Shown piece by piece: positions 2,828 to 19,382 of a stretch of DNA of 43,784 nucleotides. Source of the stretch: a virus. Lineage: Duplodnaviria; Caudoviricetes. Location of the stretch: the IMG/VR virus record IMGVR_UViG_3300015370_000024, positions 1-43,784 of that record. One strand, 5' to 3'. Under the pieces are notes generated by a model. It had not been told where the DNA came from. It saw only the letters and a program-made list of their open reading frames with translations, and ran no database searches. The position numbers and the translations under genes were made by a program. Every line of letters begins with the position of its first letter. Within the stretch, counting starts at the first letter, position 1.

Positions 2828-3253
2828 TCATATCTCTAACTCCGCATCAATAAAAAAATCTTCGGGTAATTCGCGTCCGCGTACCTTGTAAAGAAGTCTT
2901 ACCCACTCTATTTCTGTTATCTCAATTTTCTTGGGAACAAACTTGCGAGCATAATCATTCAATGAAACAACGCGCCACCACGAAAAATTATCAGCATACC
3001 GAACAGCAAATACAGGAATGCCCGCACGATCACCCAAATCTATAAGCGCCTTATAGGTTGCAGTAGTTGGCGTTTGTGGTTTTGCATATTCATGCTTGTA
3101 TTCCACCAGCGCAGTAGCTTTGCAATTATCATATTCAACAAATAGCCAATCAATATCAAACCCAGGACAATCCCAACCCCACCTTCTATGCCTTGCGCTT
3201 AGTCTTTGATCGCGCCAGCCCGTCCGTTCCTCGGCCACTTTATTTGACATCAT
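2828..3253 (-). CDS. Putative PD-(D/E)xK nuclease-fold protein
   Basis: DID...LVEYK motif; overlaps the stop of the MTase gene. Confidence 0.45.
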   Translation of the reverse strand: MMSNKVAEERTGWRDQRLSARHRRWGWDCPGFDIDWLFVEYDNCKATALVEYKHEYAKPQTPTTATYKALIDLGDRAGIPVFAVRYADNFSWWRVVSLNDYARKFVPKKIEITEIEWVRLLYKVRGRELPEDFFIDAELEI

Positions 3254-4307
3254 TCAATCTCGCCTTTGAAATATTCACATTGTCAATGTCGATTTCAACA
3301 CCATCAAAAAGACAACCCAACTCAAGCGCAGCTACACCCGTAGAGCCTGCGCCACAAAATGGATCTAAAATATAATCACCTTCATTAGCAAACCGCCTGA
3401 TAATATCTGTCATTCCGCTTACAGATTGCCCCCAGTCATGGCCGCTTTTGTCGTTGTCATTTACATCAGACTTGCAAACATCTCCAAACCATTTCCCATC
3501 ATACTCGCCTTTAGCATAAATAAGTAGTGGCTTCCAATATGGCATAGCTTTTCTTGGGAACACTTGTGCTGACTGTCCGCCTGGCGTAAGGTATGCGCCT
3601 GTCCACCAATATTTCAAGTGCCTATCGAACATAGCATAAATCTGATTTAAGTATGCTTGTCCACACATAGCAATCAAAAGCCCGCCATCTTTCAGCCATT
3701 CATTAGCCGCCCGCTTTGCCAAGATTGGATAAAGATATAAATATTCGTATTTGTAAGGCGCGTCTGTGATAATGAAATTGTATTGTCGAGGCGCTTTCCA
3801 CGCTTGCATGTCCGCATGGTAAACGTTCCATCGTTCTGTCGGCTGTAGGTCTTTGCCAAGCGCTGCAATTCCATTTCGTTCTTTCTTGCGTAAATGATTT
3901 TTGGCAAGACCACGCAAACCCGACGCGCTTATTTCTCTTTCAGTTGACAGGCATTCATCCACCCATTCGAGAAAACGCTCTTCTGGCAAGGCCGCCTCTA
4001 ATTGCCAGCGGGAACTTTCATATCTATTTATTCCATCTGGCAAACGAGTCGCATCTTGCAACTCGTTGCCAGCAACTGCGCCGCGATGATCTACATTTCT
4101 TTCCAGCCACGCCCCCGCCCTGCGCTCTGCCTTTAGCTGGAATATCTTAGCCTTTTGCGCCGCATCTTTGAAGCCCTGAGCGTTTGCGAACAATTGAAAA
4201 GCAGCCGCCCTATCACGCAAAGATACCATTTCGTGAATATTGTCCGCCCGCTCAAGCGCCTGTTCTGCCGCGCTAATCTCTACGAGAGCCTTATTTTCTT
4301 CTTCCAC
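3240..4307 (-). CDS. N6-adenine/N4-cytosine DNA methyltransferase with N-terminal helical extension
   Basis: ITDAPY (DPPY-like) before ILDPFCGAGSTG, beta-class order. Confidence 0.8.
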   Translation of the reverse strand: MEEENKALVEISAAEQALERADNIHEMVSLRDRAAAFQLFANAQGFKDAAQKAKIFQLKAERRAGAWLERNVDHRGAVAGNELQDATRLPDGINRYESSRWQLEAALPEERFLEWVDECLSTEREISASGLRGLAKNHLRKKERNGIAALGKDLQPTERWNVYHADMQAWKAPRQYNFIITDAPYKYEYLYLYPILAKRAANEWLKDGGLLIAMCGQAYLNQIYAMFDRHLKYWWTGAYLTPGGQSAQVFPRKAMPYWKPLLIYAKGEYDGKWFGDVCKSDVNDNDKSGHDWGQSVSGMTDIIRRFANEGDYILDPFCGAGSTGVAALELGCLFDGVEIDIDNVNISKARLNDVK

Positions 4308-4417: not shown

Positions 4418-4600
4418 CCACAACTTACTCACCTTTTAACGGCGGTTTAAAGACTATTTTCCGGCAATCGTCTCCCAGCCGAAATACATAATCCACCCGC
4501 TTGCTAGTAGGCGTGTTTATCCATTCCGGGCCGCGCGTATAGGATGTCAACGGCAACCAACCCTTGATGAGACCGAGAAACCACATCTTAATTTTCCAGG

Positions 4601-4993
4601 TCATTTGCTCGCCTCCTGTAATACTTCCCTGTTTTCTAGCGCTCGCGCCAGTTCCTTGACCGGCCAGTCAAACAAACTTCTATATACGCGCGGCTTGCGT
4701 TTCCGTTTCGTCACAACTTGAGACTGACAGTCATAACAATGGACAACGCCGTGTACCAAACACACTGGAGCCGGGGCCTCGTAGGGTATCCCAAACCGCG
4801 CTTTGAATTTATCCGGTATCTCACGTTCGCCTTTCGCAATCGCCCAAAGCGTACCCGGCTTTATCCCTTTGTATTCGCCCATTTTGGCAATTTTACGCCA
4901 AGACAGCCCGTATGTATCATGTAGCTCATTTAATTGGGCCTTGATAATGTCACACTTGTGACGCGCATCCCTAGATTGCGGCCGAGAACTCAT
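4601..4993 (-). CDS. Putative HTH DNA-binding protein with Cys/His motif
   Basis: GLSWRKIAK...IKPGTLWAIAKG HTH-like; CLVHGVVHCYDC. Confidence 0.5.
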   Translation of the reverse strand: MSSRPQSRDARHKCDIIKAQLNELHDTYGLSWRKIAKMGEYKGIKPGTLWAIAKGEREIPDKFKARFGIPYEAPAPVCLVHGVVHCYDCQSQVVTKRKRKPRVYRSLFDWPVKELARALENREVLQEASK

Positions 4994-5267
4994 CCGCGCC
5001 TCTTGTCGATTATCAGCGCAACCATCCACAGCACCAGAATGAGGGCGGCAATTCCGAAAACTCTAACAACTATTTCAATCGGTATCATCGCCGTTTACGT
5101 TATCTGCCGCTTCATGACAGCGTTTGGAGATTCTCTATAGTGATTCTCGACAACGCCGTCCGCCTGGGCCGCAACCAACATTCGTTCTTTTGCGCGTCGC
5201 CTCTCTGCTTTTAGCAATGCCACTTTGGCCAAGCGACTGGCTCTCAAAAGTGAAATTTTCATAGTCG

Positions 5268-5849
5268 TCACTCCAATTCTTGCAGCGTTCTGGTGTGTAA
5301 AAACTCCTCAAAATGTTTCCAGCATTTTTCATGAGCAGCATCATTGCGCCACAACCACGAATGAGAACCGGCGGCGCTGTCTTTTATTACAAATCCATGC
5401 GCCTCTAAATTCTTCCTGATCTGTTCCCACGACCATTCAGGCAGCCAATCGTTTCGACAATTCCTGATTGGGAACACCTGTTTTTTATCCGAACCGTGCA
5501 TAAATCTAATAAAGTAAACAAGCGGGACATCGGTATCGTCATAATATTGTATTGCTCGTGATCCAGTCCATTTGACACGGATTTTCGGAAGAGAAATACC
5601 CAGGCACTCAAAACGGTCTGCCTGCATTTTATCTAGTTTTTCAGCAGCACCGCCAACAATCCACCAAAAATTCTCGGCACTCTTCCAGGCAAGCATAATC
5701 AAAATAACAGCAATGATTACAACACAGACAATCCAGGCAACAGTAAAAACGCTACTCGCCTTTTCCCAAATTACACCAATAACACCTAAAATAATCCCCA
5801 GTATCAAAACTCCTATTGCATGTCCCACGCTTGGATTGTATTGTGACAC
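5268..5849 (-). CDS. Hypothetical membrane protein
   Basis: Two N-terminal hydrophobic helices then a soluble domain. Confidence 0.6.
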   Translation of the reverse strand: MSQYNPSVGHAIGVLILGIILGVIGVIWEKASSVFTVAWIVCVVIIAVILIMLAWKSAENFWWIVGGAAEKLDKMQADRFECLGISLPKIRVKWTGSRAIQYYDDTDVPLVYFIRFMHGSDKKQVFPIRNCRNDWLPEWSWEQIRKNLEAHGFVIKDSAAGSHSWLWRNDAAHEKCWKHFEEFLHTRTLQELE

Positions 5850-6167
5850 AATTATTTACCATTATTGTGATCGAAACCCAATACAATCACGACGATGGCC
5901 AAAATAACGATTACCCCCAGCAGAACGAACAAAACAACTAAATCCTTGTCCGGTTCTGCCAAAAAACGCAAAATTGCGTGTTGGGGAGCTATTTTAGCCA
6001 GTAAGAGGGGGATAAACACGGTGGGGGAGTGGTTCACAGTTCCTTCTTTCTCTAACTGGGGCCGCTTTGGCGACCCCGTTACAGTATTCCTACACATGGC
6101 AGGCCCGCTATCCTACTATTATACGCTAATACAATCCTAAGCCGTTGCCATTTGTTCATAGTTCACC

Positions 6168-6668
6168 TCATCTCTTCCACCTTTCTTGACGGCTGCGTTT
6201 TTCGTAGTCTGGCCCGTTCAGAAAATCACGCACATCTTGACTGGCAGGGCGTCTAGGCACAAGTTTCATTTTGAATTTGTCATAAAATTTATCACACGCC
6301 ATATATTCATCTTGTACATCCACGACCTGTCCATTCTGGAAAATAACCTCTGTCTTTGCCCAAACCTCACCAGGCGTAACGTTGGCCTTGCTTTTTTCCA
6401 GTATGTGTTGCGCCCAATGCCCAGCCTTTTCTGACAACGGAGCGCCTGAAATTCCAGCCTGCGTTTGACCTGGATAGTATGTAACAACTGTACGGCCCTG
6501 ATCCTCTGGTTCACGCACCCCGACAAATAGACAGAGCAAATCTACCGCGAAAACAACACAGAACGCGCCAAATACCTTGAGAGTCCAGTTCCATTCAGGA
6601 ACAACCTTATACAGCACAAGGGAAAGCATGAACAGAAAAACAGTGAGCCTAAAAAGAAAGTTACCCAT
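6168..6668 (-). CDS. Hypothetical membrane protein
   Basis: Two N-terminal TM helices; start overlaps upstream stop. Confidence 0.6.
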   Translation of the reverse strand: MGNFLFRLTVFLFMLSLVLYKVVPEWNWTLKVFGAFCVVFAVDLLCLFVGVREPEDQGRTVVTYYPGQTQAGISGAPLSEKAGHWAQHILEKSKANVTPGEVWAKTEVIFQNGQVVDVQDEYMACDKFYDKFKMKLVPRRPASQDVRDFLNGPDYEKRSRQERWKR

Positions 6669-6871
6669 TATTTCACCACCTTTGCTCCCATTCGCAACGC
6701 CTCGGCAATCCCAGCCCGCCGCGCTTCATACTGGGTAACATACACTCCCGTCTCCCTCCTCTGCCCCATCACGATCACCGTTGCGCGATACATTGGCTTT
6801 CCCCCGGCCACGCACGGCCAAACATCAATAACCGCTTTTACTTCGCCATCACCGTGTAGTACGTGTGTCAT
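6668..6871 (-). CDS. Hypothetical protein
   Basis: Part of a chain of overlapping minus-strand small ORFs. Confidence 0.55.
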   Translation of the reverse strand: MTHVLHGDGEVKAVIDVWPCVAGGKPMYRATVIVMGQRRETGVYVTQYEARRAGIAEALRMGAKVVK

Positions 6872-7040
6872 TTTTAGCCTTCCTTGCCTTCATGTGACAC
6901 TCCTGAGCATTGGTCACATGACCAATAGCCCTATACTGATGCTTCAATTCCATCCATTCGCTATACGTTCCCCCACGATCTATCAAGCGCGAGTATTTCA
7001 GGTTCAGCTCTAACAATTGTCTTTCATGCGCCGTTGTCAT
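6849..7040 (-). CDS. Hypothetical protein
   Basis: Overlapping operon arrangement. Confidence 0.5.
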   Translation of the reverse strand: MTTAHERQLLELNLKYSRLIDRGGTYSEWMELKHQYRAIGHVTNAQECHMKARKAKNDTRTTR

Positions 7041-7290
7041 CCTGTCCGCCTTTCAATAGTTCAGCACAGTTTTGACAGCACTCATTTGTACATTCCCGAA
7101 AACTAAAGCCCGTATGGTATTTTTTTCCTAGGTATTGCGCGTGTGCGTGTGCTCGTTGCGCGGCATCGTTGAGCGCCGCTTCAAGCTCGGCAATGCGCTC
7201 ACACATTACATGGTTCCCGGTTTCAGGATTGAACGCCCCCGCACACGTCTGGCAAATGTCACATTTGAAATAACCTAAGTCGTCTTTCAT
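7024..7290 (-). CDS. Cys-rich hypothetical protein
   Basis: CDICQTC and CTNECCQNC; ATGA overlap with upstream gene. Confidence 0.55.
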   Translation of the reverse strand: MKDDLGYFKCDICQTCAGAFNPETGNHVMCERIAELEAALNDAAQRAHAHAQYLGKKYHTGFSFRECTNECCQNCAELLKGGQDDNGA

Positions 7291-7454
7291 TCCACGCCTG
7301 CGCTTTCTTTTTCATCTGTCTTGAATTCCTTCAAAAGTAATGGCCGATCTTCGTAACAGGCCAACACAATCTTCTCCCCACTTTCGCGGATAAGCACCAA
7401 GTCATAATGACCATCTGCCAACTTATCCAAATAAATATTTTCGACACGGTTCAT
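7287..7454 (-). CDS. Hypothetical protein, probably leaderless
   Basis: ATG 7454 lies 7 nt downstream of TGTATAAT. Confidence 0.5.
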   Translation of the reverse strand: MNRVENIYLDKLADGHYDLVLIRESGEKIVLACYEDRPLLLKEFKTDEKESAGVE

Positions 7455-7559
7455 ACCTAAAATTATACACGCCAACATTAAGAGAACATTAAAATCAGAT
7501 GAGTGTTTTCTAATCCGATTCTCATATTTCTTTAATCTTTCTGTGTATAATACTAATTG

Positions 7560-7704
7560 CACGGGCGGCGGCAAAGAAGGCTTCGAAATTGCTACGGCGA
7601 TTACGCACTTATCGTGAGCGCGTCAACGAGAAGCCCCCGCACGATCCGCCCGTGACTTCTCCTCTAGACCCCCGCCCGTAGGGCACAATACCCGGCGGGC
7701 GGGG
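7560..7704 (+). ncRNA. Candidate structured leader/small RNA at the divergence point
   Basis: TATAAT 7546-7551; nested stems CACGGGCGG/CCGCCCGTG and GGCTTC/GAAGCC; second hairpin 7670-7704. Confidence 0.35.
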
Positions 7705-7730
7705 CGAAGAGACAAACGAGAAAGGCAATT

Positions 7731-7943
7731 ATGACATCATTGAAACGAATTGAACATTTTGCGGGTCTGGCAAGAAATTCTCGTGGCGTAAGAAAAGAGG
7801 CTGCTTTGCGAGAAATGAAGCTGGCAATCTTGGATTTCTTGCGCGATGAGAGGGCCGAGATGCTCTGCGGTCATCCAAGAAGCGCCATTGTGTCATCAGA
7901 CGAGGGGACTAATTATTGTAGCGAGTGCGAAAGGGAAGCATGA
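7731..7943 (+). CDS. Hypothetical protein with C-terminal Zn-ribbon-like motif
   Basis: GAAAGG RBS; CGH...YCSEC. Confidence 0.6.
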   Translation: MTSLKRIEHFAGLARNSRGVRKEAALREMKLAILDFLRDERAEMLCGHPRSAIVSSDEGTNYCSECEREA

Positions 7944-8100
7944 CAGTCAGAGAATTCTTACAAGAAACAAAAGCGACCAGTTGGTATGAGTGTCACTGGT
8001 CTATCGCCGGAACGTTAGAGCAGGCGCAAGCATGGTTCAAAAACCACGGCCTCACAGGCGCTATCTATCCCGTCCCTTTTGGGTTTTGGTTGGTGACAGC

Positions 8101-8256
8101 ATGAAAAAATATATCGTTATCTATTGGGACGCGGGCGATCAGCTAGTTACCCGTACAGTTTGGGCCAACAATAGCGATGAAGCTATTGAGATGTTGGCGA
8201 ATGATCCACAAAACCCGCTCGCACAGGTCAAAGAGATTGAGTTGGTGCTGGAATGA
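8101..8256 (+). CDS. Hypothetical protein
   Basis: ATG 8101 (MKKYIVIYW) with ATGA coupling on both sides. Confidence 0.5.
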   Translation: MKKYIVIYWDAGDQLVTRTVWANNSDEAIEMLANDPQNPLAQVKEIELVLE

Positions 8257-8447
8257 CAGACAAAGAGGAAGCCGCGAAACACCTACGCAAGATTGGCAAA
8301 GAACTGGCCGAAAAATACCCGAAACACGCCAGCGCTGAAGTTCTAGCGAATGAAGCCGCCGACCGGCTGGAAAAACCAGACGACGTTGATCCAGAGCCGC
8401 CACCGATTAGGTTAATACACAAAAAATGTCAATTGTCTCGAATGTAA
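8253..8447 (+). CDS. Hypothetical protein
   Basis: ATGA overlap with previous gene. Confidence 0.5.
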   Translation: MTDKEEAAKHLRKIGKELAEKYPKHASAEVLANEAADRLEKPDDVDPEPPPIRLIHKKCQLSRM

Positions 8448-8470
8448 TTGACACCAGAAAGAAGGAAACG

Positions 8471-8740
8471 ATGGAAAAACCAGATTGCTATAGTTGTTCA
8501 CACAGGGGAACCGTTCCAGGAAGTTGTCACAGTTCTTGCCATCATCCCGAAGCCCAGACCATTCACTCCAATCCACTTGCGGTGTTGGCTGGAATTATGG
8601 GCGGAGCAATTATTGACATGGATAATACGTTGAATATAAAAGGAAACCCGCACGGTATCCGTAAAGGCTGGTTTGCTTGGCCTGTCAATTTCGATCCAGT
8701 TTGGCTTGAAAACTGCGACGGTTTTACTCCAAAGGAATAG
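8471..8740 (+). CDS. Cys/His-rich phage protein
   Basis: AAGGA RBS; CYSCSHR..PGSCHSSC and HGIRKGWFAWPVNFDPVWL..CDGF. Confidence 0.65.
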   Translation: MEKPDCYSCSHRGTVPGSCHSSCHHPEAQTIHSNPLAVLAGIMGGAIIDMDNTLNIKGNPHGIRKGWFAWPVNFDPVWLENCDGFTPKE

Positions 8741-8862
8741 CCACTTAAAATGCAAACAACAATACACACTGTATGGTTGGTTGGTGTTTGTCGAAGAAGC
8801 CGACACCGTAGAACTTGCGGAAATTGTCGAAACCGCTATTGACGAGAAGGAGAAGGACAACG

Positions 8863-9060
8863 ATGAATGAACAAGAAATAATCGAACAAAAACAGAAAGA
8901 ATACAAACGCGGATTTATCGATGGGTTGACCGCCTTTGCTCATTGGAGAGATGGAGTCCAGCGTGTTGGAACAAGCAGTGAGCGCCCGTTAAAACAAGCC
9001 GTTGAAGAAGTAGAACACACCTGGAACTACTTACCACCAACCCACGCGGAAGATGATTAG
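8863..9060 (+). CDS. Hypothetical protein
   Basis: AAGGA RBS before MNEQEIIEQ. Confidence 0.55.
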   Translation: MNEQEIIEQKQKEYKRGFIDGLTAFAHWRDGVQRVGTSSERPLKQAVEEVEHTWNYLPPTHAEDD

Positions 9061-9123
9061 CCACTCCGCCGGTGCCGCTGGCGGCTGTGCAAAATGTTAT
9101 GTCACCCGTTAGTATTTGCGCAC

Positions 9124-9153
9124 TTGACAAGGACAGGAGTCCGGGTGTATAAA
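9124..9153 (+). promoter_or_regulatory. Sigma70-type promoter for the replication operon
   Basis: TTGACA 9124-9129, 18 bp spacer, TATAAA 9148-9153. Confidence 0.65.
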
Positions 9154-9159
9154 TAGATA

Positions 9160-9570
9160 CAACAACTTGGCGCGAAAGCGCAAACCACTGTGGCAGGTGG
9201 AAATGCAAGGATAAACTCCCCTCTTTTTGGGCGTTCTGTGTCTTTTACCATACCTTGCAGGTACTTGCCACAGACGCAGGACGACCGAAAATAGAGGAGT
9301 TTTTTATTTTTACAACGGATTATCACAGACGCGGACGGGTGATGATCCTAAATAGATGACAACCGGGAAACCGTCCCAACCGTTACGATAAGTTCACGAC
9401 CGGCGAAACCCAGACCAGGCCGCAAGGCCATCCCCCGACAAAGCGGAGAACGGGAGGGGACCAGGGCGAAACCCTAACCGGGTAGACTGGAAATGTGGCA
9501 AGTAGCCGACTTTCTCCCTAACCGGGAATGCGAAAGCAGAGAGTCGCCGATACCCAACGCAAGGAAGAAA
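9160..9570 (+). ncRNA. Long structured leader, C4/CI-like antisense RNA candidate
   Basis: Hairpin 9213-9303 with T-tract; internal segments complementary to sites upstream and downstream; several GNRA-capped hairpins 9364-9538. Confidence 0.5.
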
Positions 9571-9619
9571 AAAAATTTTCTCACCCTTGAGGGTTAATCC
9601 TTTTAACCCAGGAGCTTAA

Positions 9620-10075
9620 ATGACTAAAACAACTAATTCAAGACAATTAAGACTATTTATTCAAGATGTGTATAATAGTTATGGGGAACCTATTCCAGCA
9701 GGCTTCGAATTTTATCTTGTTGACGCAGTTATGAAATATGTTCGCTCAGTTTATGAAGATAATGAAAGTCCCGTTACAGTTCGGGAACGATTGACAAATG
9801 CCATGTTCAAAGGAGCAAAGCGGGCGGCAACCTTGGAAACCATTACAGATACCATAAAGAAGAAATTGAACATAAACCCATCCGAGGAGTTCGCAGAGTT
9901 CGCTTATAATAAATCTAAGCACGGGGAAGATATAGAAACGTTTTGTACTTACTGGCTAGAGAACGGGGGAGAACCTACATACTGGTCAGAGAAAAGAATG
10001 ATGATGCTATGGCCGCAAGCGTTCACCCAAACACTATCCTATGATGAACAGCTCGCAAAGGCAGGATACAAGTGA
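9620..10075 (+). CDS. Putative replication initiation/helicase-associated protein
   Basis: AGGAG RBS; GTGA-coupled to dnaB; function inferred from position only. Confidence 0.45.
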   Translation: MTKTTNSRQLRLFIQDVYNSYGEPIPAGFEFYLVDAVMKYVRSVYEDNESPVTVRERLTNAMFKGAKRAATLETITDTIKKKLNINPSEEFAEFAYNKSKHGEDIETFCTYWLENGGEPTYWSEKRMMMLWPQAFTQTLSYDEQLAKAGYK

Positions 10076-12658: not shown

Positions 12659-12705
12659 AACTAACTCTAACTTACTCGAACTCAAACTCGAACTCAAACT
12701 CTAAC
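12659..12705 (+). repeat. Degenerate AACTCN hexamer tandem repeat
   Basis: ..ctcg aactca aactcg aactca aactct aac.. directly before the RBS of 12722. Confidence 0.7.
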
Positions 12706-12721
12706 CAGAAAAGGATATAAA

Positions 12722-13174
12722 ATGAAACTCTCAGAAATGTTCCCCAGCGACCTGCTCAAATCACAGGATATTTTAGACGCAGGCGGCGAAATGACACTCA
12801 CCATCCTGAAAGTTGAAATGAAAACTTTCGACCGGGATGAGGGCGACAAAGACACAAAGCCTATTGTTTACTTTGAAGAGGGCAAGCAATTGGTTTTGAA
12901 CGTTACCAACAAGAACGCAATTGCAGAAATGCACGGCCAGGAAGATACCGATCAATGGATTGGTAAGCAAGTTACTTTGACCGTCAAAGATGTCGAATTC
13001 CAGGGCAAAACTGTTCTTGGCATCCGAGTCAAAAACGAAAACAGCAAGGATGCTCTTATCCAAGAATTTTGGTCAAGCGCCCGCGCTCTTGGATATGACC
13101 AGAAAGCCGGTCAGGAGTTGTTGAAAGAACACAACATGGATTTCAAGGCAGCTATCGCCGCTCTCGAATTCTAA
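12722..13174 (+). CDS. Putative ssDNA-binding/recombination-associated phage protein
   Basis: FPSDLLK..D...KPIVYF...KQLVLN.TN...W.GK.VTL...V.F.G...GIRV pattern typical of phage replication modules. Confidence 0.5.
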   Translation: MKLSEMFPSDLLKSQDILDAGGEMTLTILKVEMKTFDRDEGDKDTKPIVYFEEGKQLVLNVTNKNAIAEMHGQEDTDQWIGKQVTLTVKDVEFQGKTVLGIRVKNENSKDALIQEFWSSARALGYDQKAGQELLKEHNMDFKAAIAALEF

Positions 13175-13233
13175 CCCCTCAACGCCCGTCCTGCTCTACT
13201 TGGCTGGGCAGGACGGGCTCGGAAAGGTACTAT

Positions 13234-13584
13234 ATGGCAAAAGGTGATTACCCAACAGGCGCATTAGTTGTAGTTTTGCGCGAATATAGATATAGTGGCG
13301 GAAGCCATGAAGTTTATGAGCATGCAAAAAAGGAATTGAAAAACCTGATGATGTGCCTCGTAAATTTTGAAGCCGCCCAACAAGGCGTGCAGTCGGAACA
13401 GATGGGGCAGGATACTGACCCTAAACAGAATCCAGGCGAAAAGAGCGAAGCCGCCTGTCCCTATTACACACACAATGCCCTGTTAGCGTGGCATGGAAAC
13501 TATAAGTATTGTCCTGAGTGCGGGGAGCGGCTTCGCTGGTCTGGTAAAGAGACGGATTCTCAACCCGCCCCATCTGTCCGCTGA
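13234..13584 (+). CDS. Cassette ORF, hypothetical, C-terminal Zn-ribbon-like
   Basis: GAAAGG RBS; reads through attC and stops at TGA in the L' box. Confidence 0.65.
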   Translation: MAKGDYPTGALVVVLREYRYSGGSHEVYEHAKKELKNLMMCLVNFEAAQQGVQSEQMGQDTDPKQNPGEKSEAACPYYTHNALLAWHGNYKYCPECGERLRWSGKETDSQPAPSVR

Positions 13585-13601
13585 CGCTCTGCCCGTTAGC
13601 C
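13375..13601 (+). repeat. attC-like site 1
   Basis: GCCCAAC-AAG-GCGT(G)CAG(T)CGG(A)ACAGATGGGG ... CCCCATCTGTCCGCTGACGC-TCTGCCC-GTTAGCC. Confidence 0.8.
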
Positions 13602-13690
13602 CGCGCTGCGGCCACCCAACGAACGGGTGTCCTTGGCGGGCTAATGGGGCAAGCACTAATGCAGAGCTAGCCCTTCGTGAAAGGAAAAAG

Positions 13691-14074
13691 ATGTTCACTG
13701 ATATTCTTGAAGCCGAAATAAAATGGTGTGAAAATAATGATGGCGCTATGCCAGAAGAATTTCGTAAAGGGTTTATTGCTGGCCTAAAGCAAGCGATTTA
13801 CCTGATAAACGCCGCTCTTCAACGGATAGGGTGGGAAGAAGGTGTGCTTGAAAATGATGGAGTCTGGTTAGACATGCGCGGGCTAACTCTGCATGAAGCT
13901 GTCCAACGGTACGGGGATAATCCCGTTTCCGAAGATTCTACAGGCTATTCGGGTTCTGCTTTTTGTGAATGTACGGGTGATAAGTATGGCTATTTTGACA
14001 AGGTTTCTGGAAAATGTTTGTATTGCAACAAGCAGCAGAACCCTCACGCATTCCGTGACAGGTTTTTTTCCTAA
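13691..14074 (+). CDS. Cassette ORF, hypothetical, C-terminal Cys-rich
   Basis: Start reassigned to ATG 13691 (AAAGGA RBS); CEC...CLYC in the attC loop. Confidence 0.65.
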   Translation: MFTDILEAEIKWCENNDGAMPEEFRKGFIAGLKQAIYLINAALQRIGWEEGVLENDGVWLDMRGLTLHEAVQRYGDNPVSEDSTGYSGSAFCECTGDKYGYFDKVSGKCLYCNKQQNPHAFRDRFFS

Positions 14075-14119
14075 GCCCGCCCCGTACTCCGTTGGCAGCT
14101 TATGCTCGCCCCATTAGGC
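13881..14119 (+). repeat. attC-like site 2 (ATT core variant)
   Basis: GGCTAAC-TCT-GCAT(G)AAGCTG(T)CCAACGG ... CCGTTGGCAGCTTATGC-TCGCCCC-ATTAGGC. Confidence 0.8.
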
Positions 14120-14207
14120 GGAACTGCGGCGGGTAGCAACCCCGCCTTGCCGTCCAACGGCACCCAGCGACCCAACGCAGAGCTGGACTTCTTGAAAGGA
14201 TAAAAAG

Positions 14208-14522
14208 ATGGCAAATAATCATGATCTCGCAAATCTCATCTACCTTGCTCTCAAAGATAAGGGGGCGGGAGTGGGTAACGCTTCGATAGGTATCATTCGG
14301 AAAGTTCTTGATGAACATAATGCAGTCCGTCCAACTCTGCGTGCACCCGTCCATAGGGGGGTCTCAGTGGAATTGCCAGATTATCCACTGTATGAACTGG
14401 TTGAGGAGCTAAAAAACGGGGTGTACGTTCAATTTGTTGGCGTCCACGCTCTTGAATGGCGATCCGAATGGGGTCGTCCTAAATATGGCTTTATTGAATA
14501 CGACCCTCCCAATGGCGGGTGA
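14208..14522 (+). CDS. Cassette ORF, hypothetical
   Basis: AAAGGA RBS; stop TGA inside the L' box. Confidence 0.65.
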   Translation: MANNHDLANLIYLALKDKGAGVGNASIGIIRKVLDEHNAVRPTLRAPVHRGVSVELPDYPLYELVEELKNGVYVQFVGVHALEWRSEWGRPKYGFIEYDPPNGG

Positions 14523-14540
14523 CGCTGGGTGCCGTTAGGC
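14329..14540 (+). repeat. attC-like site 3
   Basis: GTCCAAC-TCT-GCGT(G)CACCCG(T)CCATAGGGGGGTC ... GACCCTCCCAATGGCGGGTGACGC-TGGGTGCC-GTTAGGC. Confidence 0.82.
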
Positions 14541-14549
14541 CGCTTACTT

Positions 14550-15395
14550 ATGAATAAATTTGATTTGCATTTCGGTGATTGTCTCAATGTGTTGCCCCGG
14601 TTGAAGGGCGGCAGTATAGATGCAATTATCACTGATCCTCCATACTCAAGCGGCGGTGCATACCGAGCAGACCGCACACAAACAACGGATAAAAAGTATC
14701 AACATACAGCAGAAACAAATCGTAGTTATGCAACATTTTCAGGAGACAATAGAGACCAAAGAAGTTTTGAAAAGTGGTGCTATATGTGGATGTCTGAAAG
14801 TCTAAGAGTAACCAGGGAAGGTGGTATTTTTGCAACGTTTATTGATTGGCGAAACATAGCCAGCATGATTGATGCCGTTCAGATTGCTGGGTGGGTATTT
14901 CGCGGAATAGTTCCATGGTACAAAGGAAAAGATCAACGCCCGCGCAAGGGTTGGTTTAGGGCAAATGTGGAATATTTAGTAATGGCTTCAAATGGCCCAT
15001 TGCTAACAGGCCACAAAGCACCTGGTATTTGTGCAGATGGTATTATTTATGCTCGCATAAATGGAATTGAAAAATATCATCAAACCGGAAAACCCGTTGA
15101 GGTTGCAACTCATCTTGTTACCATGCGGCCAGACATTCAAAAAGTTCTTGACCCCTTTATGGGAAGTGGTACAACCGGCATAGCATGTATGCAAACAGAA
15201 AGATATTTTATCGGTATTGAAAAAGAAAATGAGTATTTTGAAATAGCTAAAGAGCGCATTGAAAACGCCGCCCTTCAACCTGTCTTGCTAGAAAAAGGCG
15301 GCCTAACACAGCGTGAACCTGACAAGGGGGATTCTCCCCGTCAATCGAGTTTTATCAGCCCCGAAGCGGATACCGCTCAGGGAGCATTATCGTAG
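14550..15395 (+). CDS. N6-adenine/N4-cytosine DNA methyltransferase (cassette-borne)
   Basis: GDCL, ITDPPY, HQTGKP, VLDPFMGSGTTG; ATG 14550 just after R'. Confidence 0.9.
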   Translation: MNKFDLHFGDCLNVLPRLKGGSIDAIITDPPYSSGGAYRADRTQTTDKKYQHTAETNRSYATFSGDNRDQRSFEKWCYMWMSESLRVTREGGIFATFIDWRNIASMIDAVQIAGWVFRGIVPWYKGKDQRPRKGWFRANVEYLVMASNGPLLTGHKAPGICADGIIYARINGIEKYHQTGKPVEVATHLVTMRPDIQKVLDPFMGSGTTGIACMQTERYFIGIEKENEYFEIAKERIENAALQPVLLEKGGLTQREPDKGDSPRQSSFISPEADTAQGALS

Positions 15396-15428
15396 CCCGC
15401 CCCTTGCAGGTTACGCAAACCGTTAGAC
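15301..15428 (+). repeat. attC-like site 4
   Basis: GCCTAAC-ACA-GCGT(G)AACCTG(A)CAAGGGG ... CCCCTTGCAGGTTACGC-AAACC-GTTAGAC. Confidence 0.88.
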
Positions 15429-15531
15429 CGCGCTCGGCGACCAGCAACGAACGCTGGCCCCCTCCCTCGGTCTAACGGCGCGAGCACTAATGCAGAGTCA
15501 GACCGCTTACTCTAAAAGAAAGGTGTTGCAA

Positions 15532-15762
15532 ATGGAATATGAATTACTGGCTATCTTATATGCAACCAAAAACAGTCGTAAATTGTCAGCGTCGCAAATG
15601 GATGCTATAAAGGAATTTGCCATCTTCCTAGACACGCGCGGTCTAACTCTGCATGAACCCGTCACAGCCATTCAGGGCGGGTTTACGTGTGAAAATTGCG
15701 GGTGCGCTAATAGTGGCTCATTCGATACGTGTGTAGAGTGCGATGCCCCCCGCCCTTCATGA
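15532..15762 (+). CDS. Cassette ORF with C-terminal CxxC...CxxC Zn ribbon
   Basis: AAAGGTG RBS; FTCENCGCAN...CVEC in the attC loop. Confidence 0.65.
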   Translation: MEYELLAILYATKNSRKLSASQMDAIKEFAIFLDTRGLTLHEPVTAIQGGFTCENCGCANSGSFDTCVECDAPRPS

Positions 15763-15795
15763 ACGGCTGAGCGGGTTATGCTCGTGCCGTTAGGC
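15641..15795 (+). repeat. attC-like site 5
   Basis: GTCTAAC-TCT-GCAT(G)AACCCG...CAGCC ... GGCTGAGCGGGTTATGC-TCGTGCC-GTTAGGC. Confidence 0.82.
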
Positions 15796-15874
15796 GGCCC
15801 GCGGATGGGCAACAACCGCCCACCCTTGCCCGCCTAATGGCGCAAGCACAAATGCAGTAGCTAGGCTACTAGAA

Positions 15875-16075
15875 ATGGAAGAAAAGATGGATCGTAAATG
15901 TGAAAATTGCAAATTTTTTGAGGATATAAACAAATGGGGCCATTGCAGGCGTTATGCCCCTCGTCATATATCGGGTGTAGGTACAGGCTATGAGGAAAAA
16001 ATGTGGCCTGAAGTTAAATCGTATGATTGGTGTGGTGAATTCCAAGAGAAAGAGCCTTGCCCGAAGGCCGCCTAA
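15875..16075 (+). CDS. Cassette ORF, Cys-rich phage protein
   Basis: CENCKFF..GHCRRYAP..WP.V...DWCGEF; stop TAA inside R''. Confidence 0.7.
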   Translation: MEEKMDRKCENCKFFEDINKWGHCRRYAPRHISGVGTGYEEKMWPEVKSYDWCGEFQEKEPCPKAA

Positions 16076-16197
16076 CTACTGCATGGAGCGGAACTTGGGC
16101 AAGCTCCATCAAAGAAATTTATACCGATGTCTAAAAACATTTATCCGATTAGCAAGCGCGTACTCGCCCAAGTCCGCTCATGCTTGCGCCATTGGGC
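16070..16197 (+). repeat. attC-like site 6 (ATT core variant)
   Basis: GCCTAAC-TACT-GCAT(G)GAGCGGA(A)CTTGGGC ... GCCCAAGTCCGCTCATGC-TTGCGCC-ATTGGGC. Confidence 0.82.
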
Positions 16198-16219
16198 GGA
16201 CTGCTCAAAGAAGGTGATT

Positions 16220-16453
16220 ATGGAAGAAGAACTTTATCAATCGCTAAAAGATGTTCTAAGCATGTTTGGTGATGTAGAGCCAGGCAGTCGCACATGGCAC
16301 TTTATCAACAAGGCAAACATAGTTATTGCCAAATATGAAGGCCGCCCAACAAAGCGTGCAGCGGACGGGGTAACGGGCTGTGCATGTAAGCCTGAATTAC
16401 CCTATCTTCTAACTGGCGACATTTGTTCGGAGTGTAAATTACCCCGCCGCTGA
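16220..16453 (+). CDS. Cassette ORF with C-terminal Cys motif
   Basis: AAGGTG RBS, ATG 16220; CAC...CSEC; stop in L'. Confidence 0.65.
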   Translation: MEEELYQSLKDVLSMFGDVEPGSRTWHFINKANIVIAKYEGRPTKRAADGVTGCACKPELPYLLTGDICSECKLPRR

Positions 16454-16468
16454 CGCAAACCGTTAGAC
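16344..16468 (+). repeat. attC-like site 7
   Basis: GCCCAAC-AAA-GCGT(G)CAGCGG(A)CGGGGTAA ... TTACCCCGCCGCTGACGC-AAACC-GTTAGAC. Confidence 0.88.
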
Positions 16469-16513
16469 CCCTTCTTGTAAAATTATCTCACCCCTAAAAG
16501 GAAAGGTTATCCA

Positions 16514-16897
16514 ATGAATGAAAACGAAATCAAACAGAAGTTAGACCAGTTGGCAGAGTTTCAATCCGAGCGCGATGTTGCTATGCTTGAAAAACAACGT
16601 CTGCTCGATGAAATTTATACCGCCGAAATCAAGGCGCGGATGGCTGAAATAGAAGCCGAGTTTGCAGGTAAGACCGAAGCGGTAAACGAAAACATCTCCG
16701 TACTCGAAGCCGAAATAAAACAGGCTATTATCGAGCATGGCGCAAGCGTCAAAGGCTCTGTGTTTCATGCGGTCTTTGCAAAAGGTCGCGTATCGTGGGA
16801 TACAAAATCTCTCGATGGTTACGCAACCGCTCATCCTGAATTGCTTACGTTCCGAAAAGAAGGTGAGCCATCAGTCAGTATCCGTGTTGCAAAATAG
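16514..16897 (+). CDS. Cassette ORF, coiled-coil protein (Mu Gam/Gp157-like)
   Basis: Long N-terminal coiled coil; C-terminal KGRVSWD.K.L....HPEL..FRKEGEPSVSIR. Confidence 0.5.
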   Translation: MNENEIKQKLDQLAEFQSERDVAMLEKQRLLDEIYTAEIKARMAEIEAEFAGKTEAVNENISVLEAEIKQAIIEHGASVKGSVFHAVFAKGRVSWDTKSLDGYATAHPELLTFRKEGEPSVSIRVAK

Positions 16898-16904
16898 GCA
16901 CGGG

Positions 16905-17263
16905 GTCTAACACAGCGTGAACCAGACGGCGGGAATCATACCGTTGAAAATGAGTTGTTCCCGCCCGAAGCTTATTCCGATTTTGAAGGAGAGCAGTAAT
17001 CCACCCGCCGCCGAACAACGCAATGAAGCTGTCCAACGGAGAGATGAAATGAGTTTCAAAGAAGCATGTGCAAAAGCAGCAATAAAAGCAGGTGAAACAG
17101 GAGTGCAGTTTTTCGTGTACGATGCCCCTACCACGTGGGATGTTACTGCTTCTTTTCGTCCAGGTTGGTTGTTTCGTGCGTATCCCGGTGGCCGTAAGGT
17201 TTTGTCGGTTGAAGGCACAAAGCTCTTGCAAGAAGATGAGCTGCCTAACGCAAACCGTTGGGC
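16905..17263 (+). repeat. Disrupted/composite attC-like site 8
   Basis: Left arm GTCTAAC-ACA-GCGTGAACCAGACGGCGGG; partial partner CCCGCCG 17004-17010; second left arm at 17010; orphan right end ACGC-AAACC-GTTGGGC ending 17263. Confidence 0.6.
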
Positions 17264-17288
17264 TGCTGTAGGTGGCCCGGAAAGGTAA
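17049..17288 (+). CDS. Cassette-region ORF, hypothetical
   Basis: GGAG RBS, ATG 17049 (MSFKEACAK). Confidence 0.55.
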   Translation: MSFKEACAKAAIKAGETGVQFFVYDAPTTWDVTASFRPGWLFRAYPGGRKVLSVEGTKLLQEDELPNANRWAAVGGPER

Positions 17289-17294
17289 AGAATA

Positions 17295-17582
17295 ATGAGT
17301 ATCCCATTCACACAATATCTTCTCCCAAATGGTAGGTGCAATCTAGTTACGATTGATATGCCAGAAGATGTCGAAAAGAAAGCACATGCACTTATTGAAG
17401 CAGGTTGTCATTTTGATATTGAAGTTCTCACTACTGGCCTTGTCAGTATGACGTGTGAACGCGATGACGATATGCTTTCGATTGAAGTTTGCGAAGGTGG
17501 GCCGCCTGTTGTTGCTGGCGTGCGTAAGATTGTTGAGAGCGCAGCAGCCCAACTACGCGTGCACTTGACGGGTGAAGCGTGA
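17295..17582 (+). CDS. Cassette ORF, hypothetical phage protein
   Basis: GAAAGG RBS; MSIPFTQYLLPNGR; ends inside attC 9. Confidence 0.7.
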   Translation: MSIPFTQYLLPNGRCNLVTIDMPEDVEKKAHALIEAGCHFDIEVLTTGLVSMTCERDDDMLSIEVCEGGPPVVAGVRKIVESAAAQLRVHLTGEA

Positions 17583-17640
17583 CCGTTATATCGGTATTCC
17601 CCGTTATGTTTCACCCGCAAGTAACGCAAGTTCGTTCGAC
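17547..17640 (+). repeat. attC-like site 9
   Basis: GCCCAAC-TAC-GCGT(G)CACTTG(A)CGGGTGAA ... TTCACCCGCAAGTAACGC-AAGTTC-GTTCGAC. Confidence 0.75.
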
Positions 17641-17764
17641 CGCGTGCGGCCAGGGGCAACGAACGCCGCCCCCCTCCCTCGGCCTAATGGGGCGAGCATA
17701 CAATGCAGAGTTATGCTCGCGCCATTAGCTGGCTTCGTGCCAGAGAAAGAGTTGAAAGTCTAGG

Positions 17765-17983
17765 ATGCTAACTTATGATGAAATGAAATTAGTAGCCGAA
17801 GGTTGCTATCGCCCATCTAACGATCAACGGGTTCGCGCAATGGTGAAGCTGATTGAGGATATTGTATTCCCAGAGCATGTGTTTTCATATTCCGAGGAAG
17901 AAATGCTAAACGCATTGATGCGTAAATTGGGTGTTCAGTTGACGCTTGCGCATTGGGCAGACCCCGAAAGGATAGAAGCATGA
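17765..17983 (+). CDS. Hypothetical protein (array)
   Basis: ORF after the ATTAGCT core; ATGA-coupled to next gene. Confidence 0.55.
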   Translation: MLTYDEMKLVAEGCYRPSNDQRVRAMVKLIEDIVFPEHVFSYSEEEMLNALMRKLGVQLTLAHWADPERIEA

Positions 17984-18192
17984 CGTATGATTTTATGAGA
18001 GAGTTACGCGCTCAGTGGACAAGGTGGGTGGAAGAAGAAAATAAATGTCCGCATTGTGGTGGTGTCCTGCCACGGATACAAAGTCCGTTAGCTAATAATC
18101 TGTCTGCCCAACAAAACGTGCAGCGGAAGCATGAGCATAATCACGTATTTATTGGCGGTGTGTGTCGTCACTGTGGCAAGAAATGTTATTAA
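17980..18192 (+). CDS. Small Zn-finger-like protein (array)
   Basis: CPHCG and H.H...CRHCG; reads through an orphan attC left arm at 18106. Confidence 0.6.
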   Translation: MTYDFMRELRAQWTRWVEEENKCPHCGGVLPRIQSPLANNLSAQQNVQRKHEHNHVFIGGVCRHCGKKCY

Positions 18193-18214
18193 TCCGCCAA
18201 GAGAGTAGGTAATT

Positions 18215-18589
18215 GTGACAAAAATTATTGCTCAAAATGCACTAGGGCGTGGAACACGTCAGGTCATTATCCAAAGCAATGATGGCAAAATATACGAAGC
18301 CCATCTGGAGCGCGGAGATAAAATCGAGAATGCCGATTGGAAACCAACGCAGTCGCAAGACCCCGCTAGCTTTGGGGGTGCTATGTACCATCAGGGCCAG
18401 GGCTGGCTCTTTGTTGGTTACTGTGCTCTCATGGCTCCGTTTTTCCTGATTGCGTATTTGCTCATAACGGGTCGTATGCAATGGCAAACGGTTGAATTGT
18501 TGGGTCAGATATGCGGCATTCCAGTGTTTTTGTTTTTCGCGGTCGGGATGCCAGTCATTATTGCAATTAAGAAACGTCACCATGGATGA
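18215..18589 (+). CDS. Membrane protein (2 TM)
   Basis: GTG start with AGGT RBS; two C-terminal hydrophobic helices. Confidence 0.55.
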   Translation: MTKIIAQNALGRGTRQVIIQSNDGKIYEAHLERGDKIENADWKPTQSQDPASFGGAMYHQGQGWLFVGYCALMAPFFLIAYLLITGRMQWQTVELLGQICGIPVFLFFAVGMPVIIAIKKRHHG

Positions 18590-18770
18590 ACTTGAAATTG
18601 CTAAAAATGCACTTGAGCAAATCATCGGATATTATCGGCGCAGTCATAAGCATGGCAAAAATACGTGCTATATGATGTGCCTTGAGGCAGAGAGGGCTTT
18701 GCAAGAAATGAGCCTTCTAACACAGCGCGCGGACGAGCTGACAACGTTATCCCTCAAGAGCAAGCTCTAA
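18582..18770 (+). CDS. Hypothetical protein ending in a degenerate attC remnant
   Basis: ATG 18582; TTCTAAC-ACA-GCG.. at 18715 gives LLTQRAD. Confidence 0.5.
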   Translation: MDELEIAKNALEQIIGYYRRSHKHGKNTCYMMCLEAERALQEMSLLTQRADELTTLSLKSKL

Positions 18771-19304
18771 GTAAGCCTCTTCCTCTAATGTTTGTCTTAT
18801 TCTTTCAGCATCTTCTTCCCCATAAATATAAGATAGTATCTCCTCGATGTATGTTCTCTCTCTAGTTGTAGTAGGTTTATATTCTGGGAACTTTTTCGTA
18901 AAATCACCCAAATCAAATCTATTCCAATGTCCAAATTCCTTGTATACATCTTCCAATAATATAACTTCTGCTCTTGACAATTTCTGAAATTTCACAGGCT
19001 TGCCATGAAGTCTTATTGAAACATCATCAGATTGCTCAATGTGTTTGCGCCATAGTGGATCTTTGATTTTGTCGTTAATCAAATCTAAAACCCCACTTAG
19101 TACTTGTCCTTCTTTCATGGAATAATATGTATCAAATGTAATTGGACGCTCCCAATTCTCCAATGCTTTTCTATCTGCTATGTACAACAACTTTATTATT
19201 TTGAGGCGGCTCATTTTTCCCCCATGCATACTAAGAAGCAATGAAGCTGCTTCAGTAGCCTTTTGTTCATTGAACTCAGGATACTTCTTATCGTTTATTA
19301 TCAT
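18747..19304 (-). CDS. Panacea (SocA/GepA, DUF4065-like) antitoxin-domain protein
   Basis: K..KLLYIADR......PIT.D.Y.SMKEGQV motif; GAGGAG RBS and own TGTATAAT; AT-rich. Confidence 0.75.
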   Translation of the reverse strand: MIINDKKYPEFNEQKATEAASLLLSMHGGKMSRLKIIKLLYIADRKALENWERPITFDTYYSMKEGQVLSGVLDLINDKIKDPLWRKHIEQSDDVSIRLHGKPVKFQKLSRAEVILLEDVYKEFGHWNRFDLGDFTKKFPEYKPTTTRERTYIEEILSYIYGEEDAERIRQTLEEEAYLELALEG

Positions 19305-19382
19305 TTTCTCCTCAATGTGATTATACAACATCAAGGCACCTGTTACAATAAAGCGGAGGAGTCTATTCATTTCCCATCGTTT

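Follow-up and report, generated by a model that had tools for sequence, protein, structure and literature searches.

The cassette array of the window

The window, by which we mean the whole stretch of DNA analysed, is 43,784 nt long and constitutes an entire linear virus record (IMGVR_UViG_3300015370_000024) with a CheckV completeness of 100%, in which a terminase, a major head protein and DnaB were identified by Pfam and PHROG scans. At the end of its plus-strand early region, facing the late genes, it carries an array of integron-type gene cassettes with their attC sites (13234 to 18770). With at least two co-oriented attC sites and no intI gene in the whole record the element is a CALIN (cluster of attC sites lacking an integron-integrase). 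It is not a complete integron, for which an intI gene and an attI site at the head of the array would be expected; neither was found. The initial annotation had recognised no tyrosine recombinase, and this was borne out by Pfam and PHROG scans of 60 open reading frames (ORFs), a six-frame search with PF00589 and a scan with TIGR02249; a remnant of intI was not found in the window either. Contigs from a second study (run X2) match the window at 99-100% identity across several cassette junctions, and the array is therefore not an assembly artefact.

The eight palindromic sites that had been pointed out initially were all recovered at the same starts, with lengths of 94-239 nt. Two detectors found seven sites each and eight combined, and the second of them found no site in 200 shuffles of the array region. 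All lie on the plus strand, at 13375-13601 (attC1), 13881-14119 (attC2), 14329-14540 (attC3), 15301-15428 (attC4), 15641-15795 (attC5), 16070-16197 (attC6), 16344-16468 (attC7) and 17547-17640. In all of them the left core is AAC, L'' contains a bulged G and the right core is GTT or ATT; each forms an imperfect R''/L''/L'/R' palindrome with the extrahelical G and an unpaired central spacer; the bottom-strand folding z-scores are -2.4 to -4.9. The stricter left core RYYYAAC, which had been claimed for all sites, does not hold at 13881, where it is GGCTAAC. Rfam gave no match for the attC sites. Further eroded or half sites lie at 16905, 17243, 17711, 17940, 18106 and about 18715; collapsed and half sites are seen at the distal end of the array.

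The cassette starts had also been said to complement their own R'' flank. This was found over 8-11 nt in eight of nine cassettes (permutation p 2e-5) and fails for the cassette at 14113, which has a run of 2. Such complementarity requires a circular stage, and together with the movement of units at the G|TT boundary it identifies the units as gene cassettes. A covariance model (R1), built only from 37 bacterial attC sites of the Anaerolineales chromosomal type (stem covariation 92% paired), matches four of the eight complete sites, namely those at 15301 (87.8 bits), 16344 (59.1 bits), 17547 (47.1 bits) and 16070 (41 bits), as well as the eroded sites at 16905 (28.8 bits) and 17243 (14.6 bits). 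Since a motif derived from the window had served to find the host sites, the likeness of the arms is partly by construction; attC4 is 71% identical to a host attC over 137 nt with the loop included, and this match is not by construction. A 17-nt piece of the L''/inner stem of attC2 (13893-13912) recurs at 17023-17046, where the right arm of the site at 16905 would be expected, and the inner stem of attC2 resembles a nested R''/R' pair.

The gene directly 5' of the array, here called the anchor gene (12722..13174; plus strand, like everything in this paragraph), is predicted to encode an OB-fold protein, possibly a single-strand DNA binding protein, a weak prediction (model pLDDT 83; best fold match PrgE, E 3.5e-4, TM 0.32; nothing significant in a profile search against PDB sequences). 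It is preceded by a short tandem repeat with a 12-nt unit (12673-12705) and followed by a GC-rich hairpin (13184..13218), after which the relatives L014, L564, L565 and L566 have an attI-like site that is missing in the window. Cassette 1 (ORF 13234..13584) is headless, attI and its core having likely been lost, and reads through attC1 (227 nt). The flank of attC1 predicts the core GTTGGGCGGC, which is missing upstream of the cassette, and its loop encodes a CxxC peptide that recurs in the attC of a different ORF in the viral record L083. Cassette 2 (13595..14119; ORF 13691-14074, attC2, body 286 nt) begins with a leader (13595-13673) which is an inverted, loop-less copy of its own attC. Leaders are also found in cassette 3 (14113..14540; leader 14113-14190, ORF 14208-14522, attC3, body 216 nt), cassette 5 (15422..15795; leader 15422-15506, ORF 15532-15762, attC5, body 219 nt) and cassette 6 (15789..16197; leader 15789-15866, ORF 15875-16075, attC6, body 281 nt). 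Cassette 4 (14534..15428) carries an N6/N4 DNA methyltransferase (14550-15395; PF01555, E 1e-29) and attC4 with its host-like loop, and cassette 7 (16191..16468) an ORF at 16220-16453 with attC7 (body 153 nt). In cassette 8 (16462..17034) a Gam-like ORF (16514-16897) is followed by an attC left arm at 16905, the right arm of which is lost. Then come an ORF (17049..17288) ending at a collapsed attC (17243-17263), a cassette (17257..17640) with its ORF at 17295-17582 and the last complete attC (core/flank run 11 nt, body 290 nt), and an empty leader that runs directly into the right arm of an attC (17634..17730), in which payload and left arm are deleted and which is 82% like the leader sequence at 15421-15486. 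The array ends with an eroded cassette (17952..18192; right-arm remnant 17940-17957 before it, ORF 17980-18192, left arm 18106, core/flank run 10 nt, body 154 nt) and a last cassette remnant (18582..18770) with a left arm at about 18715.

The cargo had been described as phage-like, with a methyltransferase, a Gam-like protein and small Zn-finger proteins. The Gam-like assignment is weak (PHROG E 0.0055), and so is the Pfam evidence for the "Zn-finger" proteins (E 2e-4 and 7e-3), the cysteine motifs of which lie partly inside attC loops that are read through. Outside the array a second N6/N4 methyltransferase gene with a long N-terminal extension lies at 3240-4307 on the minus strand. A gene with a Panacea/SocA-like antitoxin domain (18747-19370, minus strand; PF13274, E 6e-16) abuts the array end, and no toxin partner was recognised for it. 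The virion module holds an ORF of 2233 aa (29081-35782, minus strand) without Pfam or PHROG match.

Relatives, integrases and hosts

The comparison of cassette order in related phages that the initial annotation had proposed as a check could be made at the anchor gene, whose relatives (57-89% identity) occur in phages with an attI-like site behind the gene. In five of them (L014, L564, L565, L566 and L567) this site is followed by five different cassette starts, the change of cassette falling precisely at G|TT in each case; a sixth relative (L568) has no array. The first cassette of L565 starts with the same sequence as cassette 3 of the window. In L567 the attI is followed by the very core GTTGGGCGGC that attC1 of the window predicts, and then by an ORF beginning MAKGN, compared with MAKGD in cassette 1 (five codons are visible). 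A short deletion has thus likely removed attI together with the first core from the window. A parallel is found in L309 (2048-2956), where a phage intI is cut just after its TTMVY motif and joined to a cassette end, attI and the first core being deleted.

Other phages have two of the window's cassettes at about 90% identity, and the host arrays that were sampled have none of them. The Gam-like cassette has different neighbours in L398, where both of its boundaries are present, and in L078 and L400 (3' boundary; 90% nucleotide identity), each time with a different attC body. Its homologs at 80-83% show an attC remnant or no trace of one, and at 33-69% one finds ordinary genes of phages. A Gam tree failed to polarise cassette against ordinary gene (two changes; one change in 18% of bootstraps). 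A second Gam-like variant (43 differences over 16543-16885) is present at lower depth in run X1, from which the window may itself derive. The last ORF of the array is 92% identical in amino acids to an intact cassette of the IntI-bearing phage L376. When 15 ORFs of the window, one of them (15533) taken in the wrong frame, were used as queries against 221 host-side loci only the methyltransferase matched, and weakly, as compared to two that matched phage cassettes at 92%. On a larger scale none of 132 phage cassettes matches any of 134 host cassettes; for 24 of the 132 another phage has a homolog that is also a cassette, and for 22 there is a homolog lacking the attC arm, by a crude test. Most of 131 phage cassette ORFs have no PHROG match, and the named matches are mostly DNA methyltransferases, with one Mom-like protein, one HNH protein and one queuine tRNA-ribosyltransferase; 50 host cassette ORFs gave matches to other families. 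It is well established that enzymes of this type can act in counter-restriction. Such a role is also described in PMC9892861.

A search of viral records gave 66 stretches with one left-arm motif and at least 148 with one right-arm motif. A tyrosine recombinase is found in 15 of 47 other array-bearing viral records, and four of nine that were scanned are IntI, at 397-436 bits against a curated TIGR02249 cut-off of 265 bits. A scan with these four gave 162 viral stretches, the best 80 of which were kept as viral IntI loci. In 35 of these 80 the intI is co-oriented and has an attI motif at its 3' end, a descriptive count as the motif list was derived from inspected loci. The other 45 (e.g. L339-L347 and L351-L359) have no attI motif at the 3' end and mostly few or no attC of this family, and several of them form clades of their own. 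Two 15-nt attI contexts recur unchanged in front of different first cassettes, six in one case and four in the other. In a tree of 81 proteins, for which viral rows were gathered with phage queries and host loci failing the motif filter were left out, the phage IntI fall into two phage-only clades of 22 and 9 rows (SH-aLRT 100 each), both apart from 14 of 15 host rows.

Among 69 sequences seven (L014, L019, L021, L043, L047, L083 and L084) have an attI-like array head and no IntI was found in them. The attI-like sites of six of these are near-identical to host attI, and in all seven the first core matches its own flank at 9-11 of 11 positions. Arrays headed by an attI-like site in records where no IntI was found support the use of an integrase in trans.

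The terminase of the window is matched in five of 48 array-bearing records. The left-arm pattern was found in none of nine terminase relatives (G218-G226) and is present in G021, and the window's DnaB has no match in five terminase relatives, where gene order could not be compared. Judged from these matches the attC system is patchy and crosses phage groups. An IntI relative is found in nine of 50,697 GenBank phage records, one of which is Rctr41k (L578, KX853513.1), with a co-oriented IntI annotated as xerD-like, an attI-like site, an attC array and methyltransferase cargo at 4495-9960. By its sequence Rctr41k would be a named example of the complete form, and among the papers searched none names Rctr41k. 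A blastn search with attC4 against GenBank phages gave nothing, and this search is insensitive, as it also missed Rctr41k, which has such sites.

On the host side the left-arm motif gave at least 184 stretches in genomes. Among the matches listed 72 of 80 rows name Chloroflexota, mostly Anaerolineales. The attC family of the window is thus that of Anaerolineales chromosomal integrons encoding IntI, which answers the proposal to match the family to an intI-bearing host: IntI is over the cut-off in nine of 20 of these genomes and in 12 of 121 in a phylum sample. In their layout the host integrons are of the classical divergent type, and their attI are e.g. TAAATCATA|GTT and TAAAACATA|GTT. Host attC are nearly all 128-131 nt and phage attC fall in several length classes; the median cassette body is 688 nt in hosts and 360 nt in phages. 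The phage attC lengths cluster near 91, 109, 127 and 160 nt, in steps of about 18 and 35 nt.

Leaders, attC bodies and cassette lengths

In the four window cassettes which have them, the leaders consist of the core, a hairpin and then the reverse complement of the right and left spacers of the cassette's own attC, omitting the L stem and the loop. Leaders were found at 14 of 678 viral candidate sites (0-1 in a swapped control), as compared to none of 440 sites in hosts that were selected by one motif; the candidate sites include false positives. Between leader and own attC 266 of 275 positions pair, and the leader copy of GTT is altered in 12 of 14. In a bottom-strand circle the leader fold is favoured over the attC fold by a predicted 14-39 kcal/mol. 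A leader would pair with its own attC and damp the folding of the latter. A leader may be a selected lock on excision or the footprint of fold-back copying at the birth of the cassette; the lock is slightly favoured because pairing is kept while GTT is lost. The GTT changes were also considered as evidence on the strand, since 12 of 17 keep a bottom-strand G.T pair; this was rejected, as any GTT transition would do so, and the other 275 positions show no bias (4 vs 2).

The attC bodies vary under homologous genes. Of 40 homologous cassette pairs, which are not independent and some of which have eroded sites, 30 have unrelated attC bodies after the R''/L'' arm and eight have similar ones. Since 90 of 132 phage cassette ORFs read more than 10 nt into attC (automatic ORF choice), such swaps would change the C-termini of the ORFs that are read through. 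Recombination of top-strand attC, which is about a thousand times less frequent than that of the bottom strand (PMC5371416), is one candidate route for body swaps.

When the bodies of phage cassettes are measured from core to R'', their lengths fall into classes near 148, 216 and 289 nt, and the best period among 81 of them is 35.5 (p 0.001). The classes persist after de-duplication at the protein level (n=80, p 2e-4) and without leader cassettes (n=98, p 2e-4), and no such classes were found in 116 host cassettes, which are mostly longer. All seven window bodies below 300 nt are within 8 nt of a class, five of them having belonged to the first set. A strict period of 35.5 nt was not established: an independent set (n=25) gives p 0.019 at 35.5 with the same phase and 0.11 at 71, as against 0.77 at 35.5 and 0.08 at 71 for 11 first cassettes. 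The single-strand DNA binding protein SSB binds attC in 35- and 65-nt modes (PMC8946536), and one may speculate that a ruler of the SSB type lies behind the classes.

Origin of the array and its meaning

We consider it probable that the array was built at an attI behind the upstream gene by an integrase acting in trans, from a cassette pool circulating among phages, and that attI has since been lost. What is directly seen are the attC sites, the absence of a tyrosine recombinase and of a recognisable attI, the differing first cassettes in relatives and the cassettes common to other phages. IntI from the host or from a co-infecting phage would bind the folded bottom-strand attC during phage replication, excise cassettes as circles and insert them at attI. 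The cassettes would have no promoters and be read with the early operon; a scan of the window gave 9 promoter-like sites with 9.0 expected, and a terminator scan was also at chance level. Protection from restriction by the host is the likely role of the methyltransferase, and protection of DNA ends may be that of the Gam-like protein. Lacking attI, the array would mostly lose or donate cassettes by attC x attC recombination, which fits its eroded distal end. The exchange of attC bodies likely takes place through crossover in the R''/L'' arm. The array is likely an integron array served in trans which is now decaying rather than an active shuffler, because attI is unrecognisable and the distal sites are eroded.

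The initial annotation had proposed that the phage uses a host IntI in trans to shuffle its accessory genes. For the lineage this is supported by the attC family, the changes at G|TT and the seven records with attI only. For this phage itself it looks less likely, as no attI is recognised and the distal sites are eroded. The host is a possible source of integrase and not the sole one, since at least four of the 47 array-bearing viral records and the 35 viral IntI loci described above have a phage IntI with an attI of its own. The phage host is likely a member of the Anaerolineales, to judge from the attC family.

A number of observations weigh against the reading of an array built and served in trans. 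No attI motif matches at the head of the array, which speaks against active shuffling in this phage, and the attI-like sites of the closest relatives (L564-L566, short contigs) match neither host nor phage attI exactly. Five of the seven records with attI only are less than 90% complete by CheckV, and the IntI scan did not cover one recombinase match in G024. R1 misses the four long sites at 13375, 13881, 14329 and 15641 (155-239 nt), and four sites have a probability of at most 0.02 that the R box is paired in the linear array. The host cassettes rarely match one another (120 form 116 clusters), so in this small sample the zero overlap with phage cassettes is weak, and the host assignment comes from the attC family and nothing else. 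The search for junction-spanning sequences, which had been suggested as a check, showed no clean excision joint in four runs, all used as contigs, in which rare variants drop out so that absence is not implied. A joint from 15427 to 16345 (22-nt side) was rejected as it is off the G|TT boundaries. The runs X3-X5 have small shares and were left out of habitat inference.

It is unlikely that the array was built by an IntI of the phage's own, later deleted together with attI. This would agree with the 35 viral loci in which a co-oriented intI has attI at its 3' end, with the two phage-only clades and with the 92% identity of the last ORF to a cassette of IntI-bearing L376, and L309 is an example of such a deletion. 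However, in four relatives the attI-like site is at most about 110 nt from the stop of the anchor gene, which leaves no space for intI; the L014 record has no tyrosine recombinase and the window has no intI remnant.

We give still less credence to the view that at present the units are mostly moved without IntI, similar attC arms recombining through phage annealing proteins or slippage. The 30 pairs that keep the ORF end and R'' with unrelated bodies are in its favour, the crossover not being placeable within a shared 20-nt motif, and the collapsed and half sites of the window resemble slippage products. It does not explain that first cassettes change exactly at G|TT behind identical attI (the six and four starts), nor the core/flank complementarity with its circular stage.

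The acquisition of a piece of a host chromosomal integron in a single event, as in Vibrio and Shewanella prophages, is on record (PMC9892861) and would account for the host-like attC4 with its high R1 score, and is nevertheless very improbable here, because of the host-side search in which the methyltransferase alone matched, the cassette and attC sizes that differ from those of hosts, the leaders confined to viral sites, and the Gam-like homologs at 33-69% which are ordinary phage genes.

The window fits the definition of a CALIN by Cury et al. 2016 (PMC4889954), with at least two attC and no nearby intI; the definition was made on bacterial replicons, whereas the cargo of the window is small and of phage type. 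It also resembles the phage-borne CALINs of Qi et al. 2023 (PMC9892861), which have at least two co-oriented attC, no intI and orphan DNA methyltransferases as cargo, and five of six of whose sites recombined with attI1. These have 2-4 sites per phage and no Chloroflexota host in Table S1, and illegitimate capture was suggested for them, whereas the window has eight complete and about six eroded sites, attI in its relatives and a pool common to phages. With the sedentary chromosomal integrons of Anaerolineales (G001, G005, G006 and G011) the window shares the R''/spacer/L'' and L'/spacer/R' motifs and the loop of attC4, and six IntI-less phages have nearly the same attI; the host integrons differ by a divergent intI, attC of 128-131 nt, longer bodies and the lack of leaders and length classes. 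The IntI-bearing phages resemble the inverted integron-integrase group (Treponema; PMC4889954) in that intI is co-oriented with the cassettes. They differ in forming phage-only clades in the early operon, and the window phage has no intI; the layout of Rctr41k is alike. The phage CALIN as such is already published; the phage-native pool, the phages with attI only, the leaders, the body swaps and the length classes set the present case apart. In a literature search lacking most subscription papers we found no paper on leaders, length classes or phage integrons of Chloroflexota, and came across no exchange of attC bodies beneath one and the same gene.

Integrons are seen as devices of bacteria, and those on phages as captures that happen rarely (21 of 10,705 genomes in PMC9892861). 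Here a single attC family is shared by unrelated phages, some of which have an IntI of their own, some attI alone and some neither of the two, and the cargo is of the counter-defence type. According to PMC5371416 the de novo formation of cassettes is largely unknown; the leaders, the swaps of attC bodies and the length classes offer tangible clues to cassette birth which can be put to the test. A bolder idea, which we put forward tentatively and hold to be rather doubtful, is that Anaerolineales phages run an integron economy of their own and mint cassettes from phage genes, the fold-back leaders and a ruler of about 70 nt (perhaps 35), of the kind that a single-strand binding protein might set, being footprints of the minting and the body swaps renewing C-termini. 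If this is true, the birth of cassettes could be followed conveniently in these phages.

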